DNA of 41,766 bases from a virus (Duplodnaviria > Heunggongvirae > Uroviricota > Caudoviricetes), in the IMG/VR virus record IMGVR_UViG_2531839131_000018, one strand, 5' to 3'. Below the pieces are notes generated by a model, which was not told where the DNA came from, did not search any database, and saw nothing but the letters and a program-made list of their open reading frames with translations. A program made the position numbers and the translations under genes. Of this stretch, positions 4,510 to 15,594 are shown in pieces. Within the stretch, counting starts at the first letter, position 1, and every line of letters starts with the position of its first letter.

Positions 4510-5091
4510 TATCGCGTCCTCAACAATGAATTTTGTGATGCGGTGCCTGGTGCCTCCAGGTGACGTTAACCAGTTAACAATTAACGCCGGATACAGAGAA
4601 CCCACCCATAAGAACCAATACGGAGGTCAACTAGCCTTTTTAACTGTTCCGCGTGCGCTTAGCCGCATTCACCGCATCACAAAATTCACTTTAAAAAGGG
4701 CGGCAGAGCAGTCACGGAGTAAAACTGATACCGCCAAACGTCACCAGAAAATTGATAACAGAGGGCGTTGCAGCGGAGTTGTCACTTAAGTGTATGGTCA
4801 ACCTGACAACCCGGTGCTTCATCGGGAAGACATGAACCCCCCGCCATACTTACCGCCGCGCCATTTCGCGGAGTGCCACAACCGGAAGCGCACGGTCGAC
4901 GAAAATTTAACGACAGGCTATCTATGAACCAGCTACCTCGCCGTGCGCTTTCGCGTTATGGTCTGACTTTTCAGGGAAATATCCTTTCAGTAAACTGTCA
5001 GTTCCGGATGCTCACCCGTGTCCGGCGCACGCACTCCACCTCACCCGTGGAGAACTCCTTAATTACCAACCTTAGCTTCGTTGGTTAGCTA

Positions 5092-8783: not shown

Positions 8784-9530
8784 ATGAAAAATATTGCGAC
8801 AGGTGGTGTTCTTGAGCGTATCCGTAAGCTGGTCCCGCAGCATGTAATCGCGCCGTACCGGACAGTTGACGAGTGGCGAGAGTGGCAACTGGCAGAAGAG
8901 CGAAAACGTAGCGAGGAGATCAACCGCCAGAATCGCCAGTTGCGGGTGGAAAAAATCCTGAATCGTTCGGGCATCCAGCCTCTGCACAGCAAATGCTCGT
9001 TTGCGAATTATCAGGTGCAGAACGACGGGCAAAAACACGCGCTGAGCCAGGCAAAATCCATCGCTGACGAACTGATGACCGGGTGCACGAATTTTGTGTT
9101 CAGTGGTAAGCCGGGTACCGGAAAGAATCACCTTGCAGCCGCCATTGGTAATCATCTTCTGGCGAAAGGTCGCAGCGTGATTGTGATAACGGTGGCTGAT
9201 GTGATGCTGGCGTTACACAACAGCTACGACAACAAAAACTCAGGCGAAAAATTTTTACAGGGGTTGTGTGATGTTGACCTGCTTGTCCTGGATGAAATCG
9301 GAATGCAGCGGGATACGCGCAACGAGCAGGTCACGCTGAACCAGATAGTCGACCGCAGAACGGCTTCGATGCGTAGTGTCGGAATGCTGACGAATCTGAA
9401 CCACGTAGCGATGAGTACGCTTCTTGGCGAGCGTGTAATGGACCGCATGGTCATGAACGGTGGTCGCTGGGTGAATTTTAACTGGGAGAGCTGGCGTTCG
9501 AATGTCAGACACCTGAGGGTTGTGAAGTAA
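8784..9530 (+). CDS. DnaC-like helicase loader (IstB-like AAA+ ATPase, 248 aa)
   Basis: Walker A GKPGTGKNHLAAAIG, Walker B DLLVLDEIG; typical position after the replication initiator. Confidence 0.9.
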   Translation: MKNIATGGVLERIRKLVPQHVIAPYRTVDEWREWQLAEERKRSEEINRQNRQLRVEKILNRSGIQPLHSKCSFANYQVQNDGQKHALSQAKSIADELMTGCTNFVFSGKPGTGKNHLAAAIGNHLLAKGRSVIVITVADVMLALHNSYDNKNSGEKFLQGLCDVDLLVLDEIGMQRDTRNEQVTLNQIVDRRTASMRSVGMLTNLNHVAMSTLLGERVMDRMVMNGGRWVNFNWESWRSNVRHLRVVK

Positions 9531-9551
9531 TTTTGTCCGGAGGAAATTTTA

Positions 9552-10304
9552 ATGGAAACCGTTTTTGACGCGCTGAAAGCAATGGGAAAAGCCACATCCA
9601 TAGAACTTGCTACGCGACTTGATATCAGTCGTGAAGAAGTGCTGAACGAACTATGGGAACTGAAAAAGGCTGGTTTTGTTGATAAAAGCGCGTACACCTG
9701 GCGTGTGGCTGATAACAACGTTCAGCAGGAACAGCCAGCGCAGGCAGAACTGCCGGAAGAAACCACCACAGCAACAGTAGCGAAAATCTCAGAGTGCGAT
9801 TTAACCGCGACGATTGAACAACGCGGACCACAAACGGCGGATGAGCTGGATGCGGTGTTCGGTACCACATCACGCAAAGTGGCTTCAACGCTGGCAATGG
9901 CAATCAGCAAAGGTCGTCTGATTCGCGTAAATCAGGACGGTAAATTTCGTTACTGCATGCCGGGCGATAATTTACCAGCAGAGCCGAAAGCCGCGCTGGT
10001 AACGGAAAGTGATGGTAAGGCCTTTCCTCAGCCAGCAGGTGTTGCGTTACCAGTACAGGAAGTTGCAACACAGGAAGATATAAAAACAGAAACTGTGGCT
10101 GATATTGTGCAATCGTTACCATCGTTTACTGAAACGCGAGCGGATGACCTGGTTTTACCATCGCTGCATATGGCAAACCGCGAATTGCGTCGGGCGAAAA
10201 GTCATGTCCAGAAGTGGGAGCGAGTCTGTGCCGCGCTGCGGGAGCTGAACAAGTACCGGGATATTCTGCGGGATATTGCCGCCACCAGAGAACAGCAGCG
10301 GTGA
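9552..10304 (+). CDS. Hypothetical protein with two winged-helix-like segments (250 aa)
   Basis: ORF with AGGA upstream; repeated motifs [17 protein letters not shown] and [16 protein letters not shown] suggest DNA binding; no family recognised. Confidence 0.55.
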
Positions 10305-10618
10305 GTGGCTGGGAGAAGTGGTGCCGTGCGGAAATTATGATACTCCGGCAGTGTGCGGGAGCGATGACAGTCGAAAGCATCGGTTATCTGATTGGCCGTA
10401 GTGAGTCAGCCGTCAGGACGAAAGCGCGGGAACTGGGTATCAGTCTGATGTTGCGGGGTGATTTTCACCAGTCGGTAAAAATTCCCCAGAGCAGTGTTGA
10501 GGTGATACGACAGCTACATGAGCAGGGCATTTCAGGTCGCGAGATAGCGGAAAAATTCGAAATGCCGCTGCGCACGGTGAATAACTATGTTTATTTCGAC
10601 AGGAGGGTACAAGGGTGA
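10303..10618 (+). CDS. Hypothetical HTH-containing protein (about 105 aa; start uncertain, GTG 10303 or ATG 10337)
   Basis: Two HTH-like segments (ESIGYLIGRSESAVRTKAREL, SGREIAEKFEMPLRTVNNY); start overlaps upstream stop. Confidence 0.45.
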
Positions 10619-11022
10619 GGGTTTATATCGCCGGTCCAATGACGGGGTATGAAAATTTCAACCGTGAGGCGTTTCACAAGGCAGAAGAGGAACTGAAACG
10701 GGAAGGGCATACAGTCTTGAACCCGGCAGTACTTCCGGACGGGCTGACACAGCCGCACTACATGGATATCTGCATGGCAATGATACGTAGCGTGGATGCG
10801 ATTTATATGCTGAAAGACTGGCAACGGTCAGCAGGCGCTAAAGCGGAAATGGCTCTGGCGGAGAAGCTAGGGCATGTGGTTGTTTTTCAGAGGGGGCGAT
10901 ATGCCGATTCTCTGGTTTCAGGAGGTGTGGGAAAAAGAAATGTGGGAAGGTCTTGTGATTGTGGCCGAAACAGTTCTTTTATTATGGTCTGTGATTGCGT
11001 GTATTTTTATGATTTATTGTGA
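10615..11022 (+). CDS. DUF4406-like / nucleoside 2-deoxyribosyltransferase-like protein (135 aa)
   Basis: N-terminal MRVYIAGPMTGYENFNREAF is the hallmark opening of DUF4406 proteins (from memory); AGGAGGG Shine-Dalgarno 7 nt upstream of a GTG start overlapping the upstream stop. Confidence 0.65.
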   Translation: MRVYIAGPMTGYENFNREAFHKAEEELKREGHTVLNPAVLPDGLTQPHYMDICMAMIRSVDAIYMLKDWQRSAGAKAEMALAEKLGHVVVFQRGRYADSLVSGGVGKRNVGRSCDCGRNSSFIMVCDCVYFYDLL

Positions 11023-11129
11023 ATGATGTGAATCTCGCGGTGGCCACTGAATTGCAACCATTACCCCCTGTGATGTAATTGTGGGGTAATGGTTGCGCAG
11101 GCATAGCGACAGGACTGGATGAGAAAAAT

Positions 11130-11552
11130 ATGACAAAATTTACCAGAGAGCAATTGATTGCTCATGCTAATGAAAGTGTGAAATCCATGAAATTTGCTGC
11201 GGGACAGACCGCGTTTAAGACTTCAAGAGTTGCCATTGAAATGGATCTTGCACTTGCCCGTATTGCGCTTGCCTCACTTGAAGCAATGCCAGTTGCATGG
11301 TCCTGTGCTAACAATATGGTTTTGTTCAATGCTGAATCTGTTGCGGCATACGCAAAACACTCAGCCATTGCGCCAAAACCCCTGTACGCTGCGCAACCGG
11401 CATCACTTTCACATGAGGAAGAGTTGACAATGCTGGTTAAACAATTGGTAAGTCAGTTGAAAAAAGCGAAACCAGATTGCAAATTACCGGAGAAGGCGAT
11501 GGACTACCTGAAGCGGAACGAACTGATAAGTGCAGAGGATGTTTTACGATGA
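11130..11552 (+). CDS. Hypothetical protein (140 aa)
   Basis: ATG with GGATGAG upstream; ORF MTKFTREQLIAHANESVKSMKF...; no family recognised. Confidence 0.5.
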   Translation: MTKFTREQLIAHANESVKSMKFAAGQTAFKTSRVAIEMDLALARIALASLEAMPVAWSCANNMVLFNAESVAAYAKHSAIAPKPLYAAQPASLSHEEELTMLVKQLVSQLKKAKPDCKLPEKAMDYLKRNELISAEDVLR

Positions 11553-11632
11553 CCTGGCCGGAGGCATTCACAACGACAGGAATTGCAATGGCGGTAGCAC
11601 TTGTTGTGTATTCGATTTGCCGCTGGGGATAA
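11549..11632 (+). CDS. Possible small hydrophobic peptide (27 aa), translationally coupled
   Basis: ATGA overlap with upstream stop; MTWPEAFTTTGIAMAVALVVYSICRWG has one transmembrane-like segment. Too short to be confident. Confidence 0.25.
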   Translation: MTWPEAFTTTGIAMAVALVVYSICRWG

Positions 11633-11843
11633 AAACGGTTTGCAGTGAAAGGGGAGTTAAGTAGAATTGCTGCGGGTGCTTGAGGCTATCTGTCTCAGGC
11701 ATGAACACCAAAAGGCAGATAGAGAAAAGCCCCAGTTAACATTACGCGTCCTGCAAGACGCTTAACATTAATCTGAGGCCCAATCTATGTCTCACAAATG
11801 TAGGTTAGCCTCTTACGTGCCGAAAGGCAAGGAGAAGCAGGCT

Positions 11844-11999
11844 ATGAAGCAGCAAAAGGCGATGTTAATCGCCCTTATCGTCATCTGTTTAACCGTCATA
11901 GTGACGGCACTGGTAACGAGGAAAGACCTCTGCGAGGTACGAATCCGAACCGGCCAGACGGAGGTCGCTGTCTTCACAGCTTACGAACCTGAGGAGTAA
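11844..11999 (+). CDS. hok: Hok/Gef-family type I toxin (51 aa), closest to HokD/RelF from memory
   Basis: MKQQKAMLIALIVICLTVIVTALVTRKDLCEVRIRTGQTEVAVFTAYEPEE shows the Hok signature (transmembrane segment, conserved Cys, C-terminal EVAVF..YE); an in-frame upstream ATG at 11787 gives a mok-like extension. Confidence 0.85.
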   Translation: MKQQKAMLIALIVICLTVIVTALVTRKDLCEVRIRTGQTEVAVFTAYEPEE

Positions 12000-12142
12000 G
12001 AGACCAGGCGGGGGAGAAATCCCTCGCCACCTCTGATGTGCCAGGCATCCTCAACGCACCCGCACTTAACCCGCTTCGGCGTTTTTTCCGTTGATTAACT
12101 CTAGTTATTAGAGAACCGAACTTTTATTGATGGGGCAGGGAG

Positions 12143-12535
12143 ATGAAGAAACTTGTTTTAGTCGCAGGTGTAATGATTGCAACAGTAATGTTGGGGGGGT
12201 GTGCAGCAAAGGTCGATCCAGCGTTGAAAGCAGAAGCAATGAAGCCACTAATATGTAATGATGAAAAGCAATGTGACTTTTATTGGAAACGAGCGCAATT
12301 CTGGTTGGCTAATAATTCCTCATGGAAAATTCAAACGGCGACAGACACGCTAATTTCCACTTATAATCCCTCACCAAATAGTCCATTCCTCGCTTATCAA
12401 GTGAGTAAAATGCCAAATGAAGATGGATCCTCAAGAATTTTCATCAAGCCTTTTTGCGATAATATGTTTGGCTGTCAACCAAACCCCTATCAGGCAGTTG
12501 TTTCCTTTAAAAACTTCGTTAAAACAGGGCAGTAG
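12143..12535 (+). CDS. Lipoprotein (130 aa), candidate moron
   Basis: Signal peptide with lipobox VMLGGC (Cys20); Cys-rich mature domain; GGGAG Shine-Dalgarno upstream. Confidence 0.65.
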   Translation: MKKLVLVAGVMIATVMLGGCAAKVDPALKAEAMKPLICNDEKQCDFYWKRAQFWLANNSSWKIQTATDTLISTYNPSPNSPFLAYQVSKMPNEDGSSRIFIKPFCDNMFGCQPNPYQAVVSFKNFVKTGQ

Positions 12536-12734
12536 TGTATAGCTTGGACGATAAATTATTAGTGAAAACGCCGTAAACCCTCACCCAATGTGGACTAAGC
12601 CTATCAAACATGACTGTGATGATTAGTCCGTAGTTGTTGCCTATGAAATCTGGATTGAGTCAGGGTTTAATCCAATAATTATTCTATCGTTCCTTTACAA
12701 GTCCGGTATATTACTTTCAGTTTGTTTTAGCATA

Positions 12735-12759
12735 CCCGCTTCGGCGGGTTTTGTTTTTT
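12735..12759 (+). terminator. Rho-independent terminator
   Basis: CCCGC-TTCG-GCGGG hairpin followed by TTTTGTTTTTT. Confidence 0.6.
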
Positions 12760-12831
12760 CCTGGCATTCTGGTTTACAATTCGCACGCCAGCCTGAACAA
12801 CTGGCACCTGCTGCGCCAGCAGAGACAACCG

Positions 12832-13110
12832 ATGGCGCACGATACCAAATTACACAATTCTAATGATTCTGCCGCCTTTGCCAGCAGGCACGGGCGGCGT
12901 TCTCATGCATTCAAACCTGACTGGTTCCAGCATGCCCCCTGCACTGAAGAGCAGGCCGAGTGGCTGATTCAGAACTATCGCAGACGTGGGTATGAGTTTA
13001 GGAAAGCCCTCACCCTCGATTATCGTCACTGGATAATCTACGTCAGGCTCCCTTATTCCGAACGCCCACCACGCCCGTCCCGCACATTCCAGCAACGCAT
13101 CTGGAGGTAA
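12832..13110 (+). CDS. Hypothetical nin-region protein (92 aa)
   Basis: ORF MAHDTKLHNSNDSAAF... ending 2 nt before the DUF968 gene; basic, Trp/Tyr-rich; no family recognised. Confidence 0.45.
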   Translation: MAHDTKLHNSNDSAAFASRHGRRSHAFKPDWFQHAPCTEEQAEWLIQNYRRRGYEFRKALTLDYRHWIIYVRLPYSERPPRPSRTFQQRIWR

Positions 13111-13111
13111 C

Positions 13112-14161
13112 GTGCGGGTATTACTTCGACCTGTTCTGGTACCGGAACTCGGGCTGGTGGTCGTTAAGCCGGGCCGTGAATCCATGCCGGTATTCCACAA
13201 TACCCGGGTACTGGTGGAGCCGGAACCGAAAAGCATGCGTAATCTGCCGTCCGGGGTCGTTCCTGCCGTTCGCCAGCCGCTGGTGGAAGACAAAACATTG
13301 CTGCCGTTTTTCAGTAACGCACGGGTGATTCGTGCTGCTGGTGGTGCTGGTGCATTGTCTGACTGGCTGTTGCGCCATATTAAATCCTGCCAGTGGCCAC
13401 ACGGCGATTATCATCACAGCGAAACCGTTATTCACCGATATGGTACCGGCGCAATGGTGTTGTGCTGGCACTGCGACAACCAGCTGCGTGACCAGACATC
13501 CGAATCACTCGAGCAACTTGCTCATCAAAACCTGTCAGCATGGATGATTGACGTCATCGGTCACGCAATAAGCGGTACGCAGGAGCGTGAATTATCTCTG
13601 GCTGAATTATCCTGGTGGGCGGTCCGCAATCAGCTGGCGGACGCGCTACCGGAAGCGGTATTACGTCGCTCGCTGGGATTACCAGCGGAAAAAATCTGCT
13701 CGGTGTACCGCGAAAGCGACATCGTACCGGGAGAGCAGACCGCCACCAGCATATTGAAACAGCGCACAAAAAATCTTGCACCGTTGCCTCACGCCCACCA
13801 GCAACAAAACCCATCACAGGAAAAGACGGTGGTAAGCATCACCGTTGATCCGGAGTCTCCGGAATCTTTCATGAGGCGACCTAAACGTCGCCGTTGGGTA
13901 AATGAGAAATATACGCGCTGGGTGAAGACACAGCCGTGTGCGTGTTGTGGTAAGCCAGCCGACGATCCCCATCACCTGATTGGTCATGGTCAGGGCGGAA
14001 TGGGAACAAAATCCCACGATATTTTTACGCTACCACTGTGCCGGGAGCATCACAATGAACTTCATGCTGATCCGCTGGCATTTGAAGAAAAGCATGGTTC
14101 CCAGATTGATTTAACTTTTCGTTTTCTTGATTACGCCTTTGCAACCGGCGTGCTCGGGTAA
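13112..14161 (+). CDS. DUF968-like protein with C-terminal HNH-like motif (YdfU-like, 349 aa)
   Basis: GTG start with GGAGG upstream; C-terminal CACCGKPADDPHHLIGHGQGGMGTKSHDIFTLPLCREHHNELH; position before rusA and Q as in other lambdoid prophages. Confidence 0.75.
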   Translation: MRVLLRPVLVPELGLVVVKPGRESMPVFHNTRVLVEPEPKSMRNLPSGVVPAVRQPLVEDKTLLPFFSNARVIRAAGGAGALSDWLLRHIKSCQWPHGDYHHSETVIHRYGTGAMVLCWHCDNQLRDQTSESLEQLAHQNLSAWMIDVIGHAISGTQERELSLAELSWWAVRNQLADALPEAVLRRSLGLPAEKICSVYRESDIVPGEQTATSILKQRTKNLAPLPHAHQQQNPSQEKTVVSITVDPESPESFMRRPKRRRWVNEKYTRWVKTQPCACCGKPADDPHHLIGHGQGGMGTKSHDIFTLPLCREHHNELHADPLAFEEKHGSQIDLTFRFLDYAFATGVLG

Positions 14162-14173
14162 AAGAGGTTACTG

Positions 14174-14548
14174 ATGCGTATAGAGTTTGTTTTGCCTTAC
14201 CCGCCAATGGTGAACACCTACTGGCGACGTCGTGGCAGCACATATTTTGTATCAAAAGCCGGTGAGCGTTATCGCCGGGATGTGGCGCTTATTGTTCGCC
14301 AGCAGCGACTGAAATTAAATCTGTCCGGAAGGCTGGCGATAAAGATTATTGCAGAGCCACCGGATAAGCGCCGTCGTGACCTGGACAATATTCTGAAAGC
14401 ACCACTTGATGCACTGACACACGCGGGGTTGCTTATCGACGACGAGCAGTTTGATGAAATTAATATTGTGCGCGGTCAGGTCGTTCCTGGTGGTCGGCTG
14501 GGCGTGAAGATTTACGAAATAATGCATGACGGGCAGGTCAAAAAATGA
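14174..14548 (+). CDS. rusA: Holliday junction resolvase RusA (124 aa)
   Basis: Matches RusA layout and motifs (PPMVNTYWRRRG..., RRRDLDNILKAPLDALTHAGLLIDDEQ); typical nin-region position. Confidence 0.85.
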   Translation: MRIEFVLPYPPMVNTYWRRRGSTYFVSKAGERYRRDVALIVRQQRLKLNLSGRLAIKIIAEPPDKRRRDLDNILKAPLDALTHAGLLIDDEQFDEINIVRGQVVPGGRLGVKIYEIMHDGQVKK

Positions 14549-15366
14549 AGCTGGAAGATTTACCGAAATACTATTCCCCAAAATCGCCTGGCCTGACTGA
14601 TGCATCCGCCTCGACGTCAAAAGATGCGCTTAGTATCACTGATGTGATGGCTGCGCAGGGCATGACACAGAATCGGGCTGAGATGGGGTTTTCTGCGTTC
14701 CTGGGGAAAATGGGCATCAGTATGAATGACAGGGCGCGGGCAACAGAATTACTGGCAGATTATGCACTCAGTCGGTGCGATCGTGTGGCGGCGTTGAGAA
14801 AACTTCCGGCAGAAATAAAACCGGTAGTGATGCGCATTATGGCTTCGTATGCTTTTGAGGATTATGCCCGCAGTGCAGCGAGTAAAAAGCAGTGTTCTTG
14901 TTGCCGTGGGGAAAAATTTATTGAAAGCGAAGTTTTTACAAACAAGGTTCAGTATCCGGATGGTAAGCCGCCAGTATGGGCAAAGTGCACAAAAGGCGTG
15001 TATCCGTCTTATTGGGAAGAATGGAAAAAAATCCGGGAGGTGGTGAAAGTTTCCTGTCCTGAATGTAAAGGGAAGGGAGAGATCTCCACTGCCTGTAAAG
15101 ACTGCCGTGGGCGTGGTGTTGCCATTCATCGTGAAGAGTCAGAAAAACGGGGTATGCCTGTTATCAGGGACTGCCGGCGTTGTGGCGGTCGTGGCTATGA
15201 AAGACTGCCATCAACGGAGGCATTTAATGCCATATGCAAAGTGACGAGTGCTATCACACTTGATACATGGAAAAAATCAGTGAAACGCTTTTACGATACG
15301 TTGGTGGTTCGGTTTGACATTGAAGAGGCATGGGCGGAGCGGCAGTTAAAGAGGGTAACGCGATAG
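14545..15366 (+). CDS. Late-gene antiterminator Q-like protein (273 aa)
   Basis: ATGA overlap with rusA stop; Cys-rich zinc-finger-like cluster (CPECKGKG..CKDCRGRG..CRRCGGRG); immediately upstream of a promoter plus short terminator. Confidence 0.7.
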   Translation: MKLEDLPKYYSPKSPGLTDASASTSKDALSITDVMAAQGMTQNRAEMGFSAFLGKMGISMNDRARATELLADYALSRCDRVAALRKLPAEIKPVVMRIMASYAFEDYARSAASKKQCSCCRGEKFIESEVFTNKVQYPDGKPPVWAKCTKGVYPSYWEEWKKIREVVKVSCPECKGKGEISTACKDCRGRGVAIHREESEKRGMPVIRDCRRCGGRGYERLPSTEAFNAICKVTSAITLDTWKKSVKRFYDTLVVRFDIEEAWAERQLKRVTR

Positions 15367-15371
15367 TGTTG

Positions 15372-15399
15372 TTGATTTTTCCCGAATCTGTGGTAAATT
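15372..15399 (+). promoter_or_regulatory. Candidate late promoter (PR'-like) downstream of Q
   Basis: TTGATT (15372-15377), 16-nt spacer, TAAATT (15394-15399); followed about 50 nt later by an intrinsic terminator. Confidence 0.45.
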
Positions 15400-15448
15400 A
15401 ACCCTAACGATGGGCGTTTTATGCCTGACGTTAGAAGAATTTTTACAA

Positions 15449-15472
15449 CCCGCCACCGAGCGGGTTTTTTAT
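15449..15472 (+). terminator. Rho-independent terminator (tR'-like, candidate target of Q antitermination)
   Basis: CCCGC-CACCGA-GCGGG hairpin followed by TTTTTTATT. Confidence 0.65.
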
Positions 15473-15594
15473 TGCCTGAAAAACGGCACAGGACGTTAAA
15501 TGCGCTGGTGGTTGCGAATACTGGCCTTTCAACTTGCTGGCTTTTTCGACAAGAGTTATTGGTATGTCACGTTAACCAGAAAAGGGAAAAAGAC

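Follow-up and report, generated by a model that had tools for sequence, protein, structure and literature searches.

A prophage-borne hok/sok-type locus that is very probably a complete cassette of the hokD/hokW subfamily

The hok/sok (parB) locus of plasmid R1 is plasmid-borne, has a role in post-segregational killing and is controlled in an RNase III-dependent manner. It combines a 70-codon mok leader ORF, an mRNA in which the tac and fbi elements pair, a ucb element, and a Sok RNA antisense to the region of the mok start. [quoted passage not shown] The 933W record annotates mokW, hokW and sokW, with mokW given as an in-frame extension of hokW. Three further members are found in E. coli K-12. 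The hokD (relF) gene lies in the relBEF operon of the Qin prophage and is co-transcribed with relBE (PMC3598666), while hokC/gef-mokC-sokC and hokB-mokB-sokB are chromosomal loci outside prophages, unlike the locus described here, and a copy of IS186 ends ~20 nt downstream of hokC.

We compared with these systems a locus in a 41,766-nt stretch of Caudoviricetes DNA (IMG/VR record IMGVR_UViG_2531839131_000018; hereafter the window), in which features are on the plus strand unless stated otherwise. By gene content (a CI-like repressor and Cro-like and CII-like regulators) the window is a lambdoid prophage. The locus had been assigned to a nin-like region in a first-pass annotation, and the gene order around hok bears this out: CI, Cro, CII, O-like and DnaC-like genes, a DUF4406 gene, a gene for a 140-residue protein, a micro-ORF, hok, a gene for a 130-aa lipoprotein, DUF968 (YdfU), RusA and Q, with the cassette in the same orientation as the early-right operon. 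The Qin neighborhood of K-12 is the same, with hokD, rem and ydfU, and with DUF968/YdfU, RusA and Q downstream. Our analyses leave little doubt that the type I toxin-antitoxin cassette at positions 11639-12087 is of the hok/sok type, belongs to the hokD/hokW subfamily and is complete, forming a self-contained "moron" that would operate by the standard hok/sok mechanism. The R1 features listed above all have counterparts in the window, and RNase III-dependent control would be expected there by homology. The system is therefore an already-known one, an ordinary copy of the well-studied hok/sok that offers little new biology; the leads that remain are a hypervariable recognition loop, a weakened terminator and a mostly unannotated micro-ORF.

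The toxin ORF encodes 51 aa (ATG at 11844, stop at 11997-11999). It had been given a Hok/Gef signature, the mark of toxins of ~50 aa with an N-terminal transmembrane helix and a conserved C-terminal domain, and near-identity to HokD/RelF; alignment confirms both, with 51 of 51 residues identical to E. coli K-12 HokD/RelF, a match to Pfam HOK_GEF that covers 42/42 model positions (E=1.2e-23) and a match to PHROG 251, "MokW-like host killing" (E=2.8e-33). The public protein collection lists the exact sequence as HokD; 47/51 residues are shared with HokW of 933W, the four that differ being C-terminal. A set of 140 related loci, taken from IMG/VR, from reference records and from the window itself, yielded 95 distinct full-length versions, and column entropy within the hok ORF is near zero across these versions. 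HokW, which is 92% identical to the window protein, is toxic as the 51-aa form alone and is neutralized by sokW (PMC8621323), and earlier literature cited in PMC3598666 describes RelF toxicity. By analogy with HokW and sokW, the window Hok would be expected to be toxic and to be neutralized by its Sok. The codon for Tyr47 (TAC followed by G, UACG in the mRNA; 11982-11985) is a candidate site for TadA A-to-I recoding of Tyr to Cys, and editing of hokD at the equivalent Tyr codon is reported in the introduction of a preprint (bioRxiv 10.1101/2025.08.07.668861). A 54-aa ORF on the minus strand, antisense to hok (11813-11977), was set aside as a mechanical ORF.

Upstream of hok, a consensus scan identified a promoter at 11639-11667 (TTTGCA or TTGCAG, a 16-17 nt spacer, and TAGAAT at 11662-11667), for which the predicted +1 of the mRNA is the G at 11674. 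Among the 30 commonest upstream versions (out of 47), nearly all retain the TTGnnn-spacer-TAGAAT arrangement; these versions come from roughly eight unrelated contexts. The predicted full-length mok-hok mRNA extends from 11674 to 12087, as judged from its fold and from the end of homology at 12087; its minimum free energy (MFE) is -157.7 kcal/mol, and the 417-nt stretch 11674-12090 folds with z=-5.95 relative to shuffled sequences. The Rfam model RF01794 matches 11674-11849 on the plus strand over its full length (120 bits, E=5.6e-27), starting at the predicted +1, and the K-12 hokC and hokB leaders score 110-118 bits. A match of this quality, like the z-score of the fold, is not fortuitous. 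RF01794 is named "sok" but models the sense leader of hok mRNA: in K-12 hokC, K-12 hokB and 933W it matches the hok strand, opposite the annotated sokC, sokB and sokW. Weak Rfam matches to isrK (12008-12087), to ceN48 and to "sok" on the minus strand were far below threshold (E=0.2-0.7) and were discarded.

The predicted structure of this mRNA contains the pairings that characterize the R1 system. In the MFE fold, tac at the 5' end (11674-11685) forms 12 pairs with fbi (CCUCAACGCACCC, 12049-12061), which is the kind of long-range pairing that the first-pass annotation had suggested folding might reveal, and the mok Shine-Dalgarno (SD) region, GAGGC at 11775-11779, is paired with GCCCC (11729-11733) of ucb (AAGCCCC, 11727-11733). 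We refer to this as the closed form. In the alternative open form, ucb pairs instead with tac, as seen when the 5' fragment is folded by itself and in the Rfam consensus structure, both of which also define tac; when the tac/ucb pairing is forced, GAGGC pairs unprompted with dcb (GCCUC, 11808-11812). The tac and fbi elements are 100% paired yet invariant across the 95 versions, which are closely related, so covariation support must come from the R1-type comparison, where the equivalent 5'-3' pairing is made by other sequence. The ucb/SD helix contains three pairs with changes on both sides, indicating compensatory variation. These sequence elements, their conservation and the pairings predicted for them are demonstrated here computationally. 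The calculated penalty for adopting the open form falls from 11.0 kcal/mol in the full-length RNA to 4.7 after removal of the 3' 41 nt, which include fbi; in this thermodynamic folding the open conformer is not the MFE structure of the truncated RNA, and the modeled change is in the direction that the R1 model requires.

The antisense RNA can be placed by comparison with 933W. Transfer of the coordinates of the annotated sokW predicts a 71-nt Sok on the minus strand, running from 11795 to 11725. The expectation that a Sok-like RNA lies on that strand was thus correct, but the interval proposed for it, 11740-11850, was not. The predicted RNA folds into a 14-nt 5' tail (GUGAGACAUAGAUU) followed by a long hairpin and UUUU (-32.7 kcal/mol, z=-4.95); it spans the mok SD and AUG, and its 5' end lies 8 nt inside mok, matching the geometry of K-12 sokC. 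Its promoter, which could not be defined by eye in the first pass, occupies 11802-11830 on the minus strand, within mok, with a -35 of TTGCCT (11830-11825), a 17-nt spacer and a -10 of TAACCT (11807-11802). In a generic promoter scan this promoter fell below threshold, its -10 matching the consensus at 3/6 positions; we assigned it because it is identical to the sokW promoter, the -10 of which is the hexamer that Takada et al. mutated, with primers YO-421/422, for a promoter-less construct (PMC8621323), and the whole of 11800-11839 is identical to the 933W sequence. Promoter identity and fold together predict that Sok is transcribed in the window. On the mRNA, the Rfam consensus structure and our folds define a Sok target hairpin (11775-11812) that is closed by the pairing of GAGGC (11775-11779) with GCCUC (11808-11812); its inner stem (11782-11790 with 11798-11806) contains the mok AUG, and its 7-nt loop, CUCACAA, occupies 11791-11797.

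Of the known systems, hokW-sokW of 933W is nearest to the window cassette: over 523 nt, the two share 91% nucleotide identity and have in common the promoter, tac, ucb, an in-frame 70-codon mok, the Sok promoter and fbi; 933W also carries the micro-ORF upstream of the cassette. The two differ in the Sok 5' tail and target loop (CUCACAA in the window versus CUGAACA in 933W), in the 3' end beyond fbi, which is unrelated, and in position, the cassette being at the far right end of the 933W map versus the nin-like region of the window. The relationship to K-12 hokD is of another kind. From the hok SD to the terminator, the DNA of the two loci is 98% identical, and K-12 retains only the equivalent of 11830-12087, with relBE in place of the promoter, tac, ucb, mok start, target hairpin and Sok gene. 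Because the K-12 copy is truncated in this way, the window represents the complete, autonomous form of the hokD locus, of which the 3' part survives in K-12 as hokD/relF.

Related cassettes are abundant. A 592-nt region of the window is matched in 4946 of 5426 complete E. coli genomes (median 2 and maximum 10 places per genome; the best E. coli matches are 97.5% identical and annotated as hokD) and in 83 phage records, and prophages are reported to be enriched in hok (bioRxiv 10.1101/2025.08.07.668861). Among the 140 loci, homology begins at 11540-11549, at 11627 or at 11649-11662 and ends in most at 12087, and the upstream flanks are of roughly eight unrelated kinds. Boundaries that coincide with the promoter and terminator, together with varied flanks, mark the cassette, to judge from these alignments, as an autonomous moron that travels among phage contexts. 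Near-identical copies vary in three respects: the mok frame, the Sok recognition loop and the terminator.

By comparison with related sequences, the 3' end of the cassette (12070-12087) is a putative, degenerate intrinsic terminator, CCCGC-UUCG-GCG followed by UUUUUU. Most relatives have AACCCGC-TTCG-GCGGGTT and a T-run, forming a 7-bp stem of -12 to -15 kcal/mol, whereas GCGTTTTTT stands at this position in the window and in about nine further loci; here a GG has been lost, and a 3-bp stem and T6 are left. A generic terminator scan of the locus called none. Judged by sequence, the terminator is the single weak point among the cassette elements, and 3'-end formation may differ as a consequence of its weakening.

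This weakness raises the question of whether the cassette is a decaying, non-functional remnant that no longer kills or regulates, as is the case for several hok loci of laboratory E. coli. Precedents exist: K-12 hokD is itself truncated, and chromosomal hokA, hokB and hokC are reported, in work cited in bioRxiv 10.1101/2025.08.07.668861, to lack post-segregational killing. However, 933W is devoid of a canonical terminator altogether and its hokW-sokW still functions; in the window, the promoter, tac, ucb, mok SD and ATG, dcb, Sok promoter and hairpin, hok ORF and fbi are all intact and match that functional system, and the toxin is identical to HokD. In addition, overexpressed Hok homologs other than HokB and PndA of R483 are lytic or toxic according to studies that the same preprint cites. 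We therefore consider a remnant unlikely and favor an intact cassette.

Within the cassette, hok is preceded by a mok-type leader ORF of 70 codons, identified from the ORF itself and from alignments (11787-11999, of which 11787-11843 is specific to the leader), with GAGG at 11775-11778 as its SD. The ATG at 11787 had been read as the start of an in-frame, mok-like leader, and this reading holds: the ATG lies 57 nt upstream of that of hok, in the same frame and with no intervening stop, giving a 70-aa ORF whose exact sequence is in the public protein collection and in ~1000 contigs. The accompanying view, that this departs from classical mok genes, which are read in another frame, is correct for R1, where the AUGs are at 116-118 and 174-176 (58 nt apart, out of frame; PMC9841398), and for K-12 mokB/hokB (58 nt, out of frame). 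It does not make the window an anomaly, since 933W mokW/hokW and K-12 mokC/hokC both have a spacing of 57 nt, are in frame and share a stop, and 82 of the 95 versions have the 57-nt, in-frame spacing, 81 of these encoding a 70-aa ORF. The 57-nt, in-frame arrangement is also found on an IncFII plasmid with a Hok identical to the R1 query sequence. As far as these sequences indicate, an in-frame mok is not unusual in this branch of the family. In 12 of the 95 versions the spacing is 56 nt, producing a 19-codon mok with a TGA that overlaps the hok ATG, and in one it is 58 nt (+1, as in R1). The mok frame is accordingly a free variable rather than an essential feature.

The open, in-frame leader could also mean that the real product is a 70-aa, N-terminally extended Hok isoform initiated at 11787, such that Sok represses a toxin isoform directly and not through coupling alone. 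The prevalence of in-frame versions is compatible with this, and some records call the 213-nt ORF "host killer protein" or "Hok family toxin". The versions with a 56- or 58-nt spacing argue against it, as do the hypervariability of the first codons of the extension and the presence of a separate SD for hok, AGGAG at 11830-11834, 9 nt 5' of its start. Moreover, the 51-aa HokW is toxic alone, and in R1 translation of mok is needed only as far as the hok start (PMC9841398). We regard a functional 70-aa isoform as improbable, and consider 11787-11843 a leader whose translation would be coupled to that of the 51-aa toxin.

The most variable part of the cassette is the region where Sok and mok would meet. 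Column entropy is low in most of the leader and peaks at 11784-11802 (0.67-0.70 bits per column). This 19-nt segment makes up the inner stem and loop of the hairpin that Sok targets, and it coincides both with the Sok 5' end and with the opening codons of mok. At least 18 variants of this segment occur in cassettes that are otherwise 93-98% identical. In all 13 variants that we folded, the outer GAGGC/GCCUC pairing forms, and the inner stem forms in all but one; the hairpin energies are -12 to -14.7 kcal/mol, and the loop sequences differ. Insertions and deletions of 1 nt within the segment change the mok/hok frame between variants. On these features the segment looks like a specificity determinant. 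That it is a specificity module under diversifying selection is a tentative proposal, to which we give somewhat less than even weight. Six groups of genomes with co-resident prophage cassettes were examined, four of which were comparable: in the four genomes compared, each with two or three cassettes, the variants were identical in two and different in two. If the proposal is true, each co-resident prophage cassette would answer to its own Sok only, and gain or loss of a single nucleotide would decide whether a cassette makes a 70-aa Mok-Hok fusion or uses a short, coupled leader.

Based on R1 and hokW-sokW, by analogy with which we infer the expression, processing, host toxicity and biological role of the window cassette, we propose the following mechanism. 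A constitutive promoter would produce a stable mRNA of ~414 nt, in which tac/fbi pairing would keep the mok SD sequestered by ucb, such that the full-length RNA would be neither translated nor bound by Sok. Slow 3' trimming would remove fbi, allowing tac to pair with ucb and the mok SD to enter the target hairpin. In a lysogen, the abundant but unstable 71-nt Sok would pair with the mok SD/AUG region, the 5' tail of Sok and the loop of the hairpin making the initial contact, and the Sok/mok duplex would be cleaved by RNase III. Were Sok transcription stopped or overrun, as upon prophage induction, host shut-off or loss of the element, mok would be translated, opening the hok start, and the 51-aa Hok would insert into the inner membrane and depolarize or lyse the cell. 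As the cassette and the early-right operon point in the same direction, antiterminated transcription reading through upon induction could override the convergent Sok promoter. Such an override would fit the fall in sokW and rise in HokW that follow mitomycin C treatment in Sp5. The most likely role, by the same analogy, would be assistance with lysis when the prophage is induced, which has been shown for hokW, and/or abortive infection or retention of the prophage.

Immediately upstream of the cassette is a hydrophobic micro-ORF of 27 codons (MTWPEAFTTTGIAMAVALVVYSICRWG, 11549-11632), taken from the ORF list and retained on conservation. Its ATG overlaps the TGA (as ATGA) of the preceding 140-aa gene (11130-11552), in agreement with the translational coupling proposed in the first pass, and its stop is 7 nt before the hok -35. 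Of 31 distinct versions from related loci, 26, that of the window among them, are intact 27-codon ORFs; the remainder are disrupted by a frameshift or an early stop, or have lost the stop or the ATG. The first, second and third codon positions contain 12, 10 and 22 variable sites, and pooled pairwise pN/pS is 0.29 in frame versus 1.00 and 1.86 in the other frames, values that are indicative since the pairs are non-independent. The micro-ORF is probably a real gene for a small membrane protein, as this pattern of substitution suggests.

A role for the micro-ORF within the toxin system, for example as a second small membrane toxin or as a regulator of hok, is suggested by its hydrophobicity, small size and position directly upstream of the hok promoter, but is very improbable given that it occurs without hok in BP-4795 and ArgO145, that it is absent from most hok cassettes, in which homology begins at 11627-11662, that it is translationally coupled to the upstream gene and that no antisense partner was detected for it. 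Instead, the micro-ORF is probably linked to the C-terminal module of the gene before it and does not depend on hok. In BP-4795 it lies between a DUF551 gene upstream and DUF4222, xis and int downstream; this copy (MNWPEAFTAVGVAIAVAFILYSLFRWG) is of equal length, retains the WPEAF and RWG motifs and likewise has a start that overlaps a stop codon (TGATG). In ArgO145 the next genes are those of a type II toxin-antitoxin system on the other strand. An exact look-up of the peptide in the protein collection and searches against Pfam and PHROGs gave no match, and four of five records inspected carry no CDS annotation for it, the fifth annotating a 36-aa variant. By tblastn it is found in 90 phage records, down to 56-63% identity, and its DNA is present in 1518 of 5426 complete E. 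coli genomes, making it a widely conserved and largely unannotated small gene.

The most variable part of the hok/sok cassette coincides with the site at which its antisense RNA would be expected to meet the mRNA. Comparison of related cassettes revealed at least 18 variants of the segment at window 11784-11802 in cassettes that are otherwise 93-98% identical, and this segment occupies the same place as the 5' end of the predicted Sok RNA and the loop of its target hairpin. Folding of the variants indicated that the target hairpin is retained in nearly all of those folded, and the frame of the mok-type leader relative to hok is determined by 1-nt indels within the same 19 positions. The Rfam family RF01794 carries the name "sok antitoxin" and matches window 11674-11849. 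In all of the annotated reference loci (L004, L167 and L001, the last from phage 933W) its match falls on the sense strand, that of the hok mRNA, opposite to the strand on which sokC, sokB and sokW are annotated; the strand of an RF01794 match should therefore not be taken as that of Sok. Upstream of its L0142 gene, the 933W locus also contains an Rfam sRNA-Xcc1 match (L001 186-274, 69 bits) that is unrelated to the window.

Upstream of the cassette lies a conserved 27-codon ORF (window 11549-11632; positions 1201-1284 in each of the loci L165 and L166). Among 5426 complete E. coli genomes, 1518 carry it, as do 90 phage records; of five records inspected for its annotation, four leave it unannotated. 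The DNA downstream of this ORF differs by locus, being hok/sok in the window, a type II toxin-antitoxin system in ArgO145, and DUF4222, xis and int in BP-4795, and the site after the ORF may be a hotspot for cargo insertion. Two tandem hok cassettes, approximately 500 nt apart, are present in one related locus (L122 2195-3086), and in another (L160) the hok leader that follows the micro-ORF ends abruptly at the equivalent of window 11702, with a complete hok cassette (L077) located further downstream on the same IMG/VR contig.

At the 3' end of hok, the window and approximately nine related loci share a shortened terminator stem (window 12070-12087), reading GCGTTTTTT instead of GCGGGTTTTT, and transcription of hok could possibly continue through it into the lipoprotein gene located downstream (12143-12535). 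Within hok, the Tyr47 codon TAC and the G that follows it (UACG, window 11982-11985) form, by motif match, a candidate site for TadA A-to-I editing. A preprint reports Tyr to Cys recoding at this editing motif in hokB, with hokC, hokD and hokE edited at the corresponding codon (bioRxiv 10.1101/2025.08.07.668861).

Elsewhere in the prophage, a full-length DicF sRNA (Rfam RF00039, 76.7 bits) is located at window 4698-4749 on the minus strand; Qin-like prophages likewise carry DicF, in their immunity/dicB region. Genes for tRNA-Met (CAT; 17042-17117) and tRNA-Arg (TCT; 17215-17291), both on the plus strand, lie downstream of the Q antiterminator gene, a typical position for tRNA genes in Stx-type and other lambdoid prophages. 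Of 5426 complete E. coli genomes, a single one matches 80% or more of the 6 kb at window 9500-15500, with 91% identity. Among the IMG/VR contigs, three (L086-L088) show 100% identity to the window over whatever part of 11540-12140 each contains. The prophage has a mosaic make-up and is seldom seen in complete genomes.
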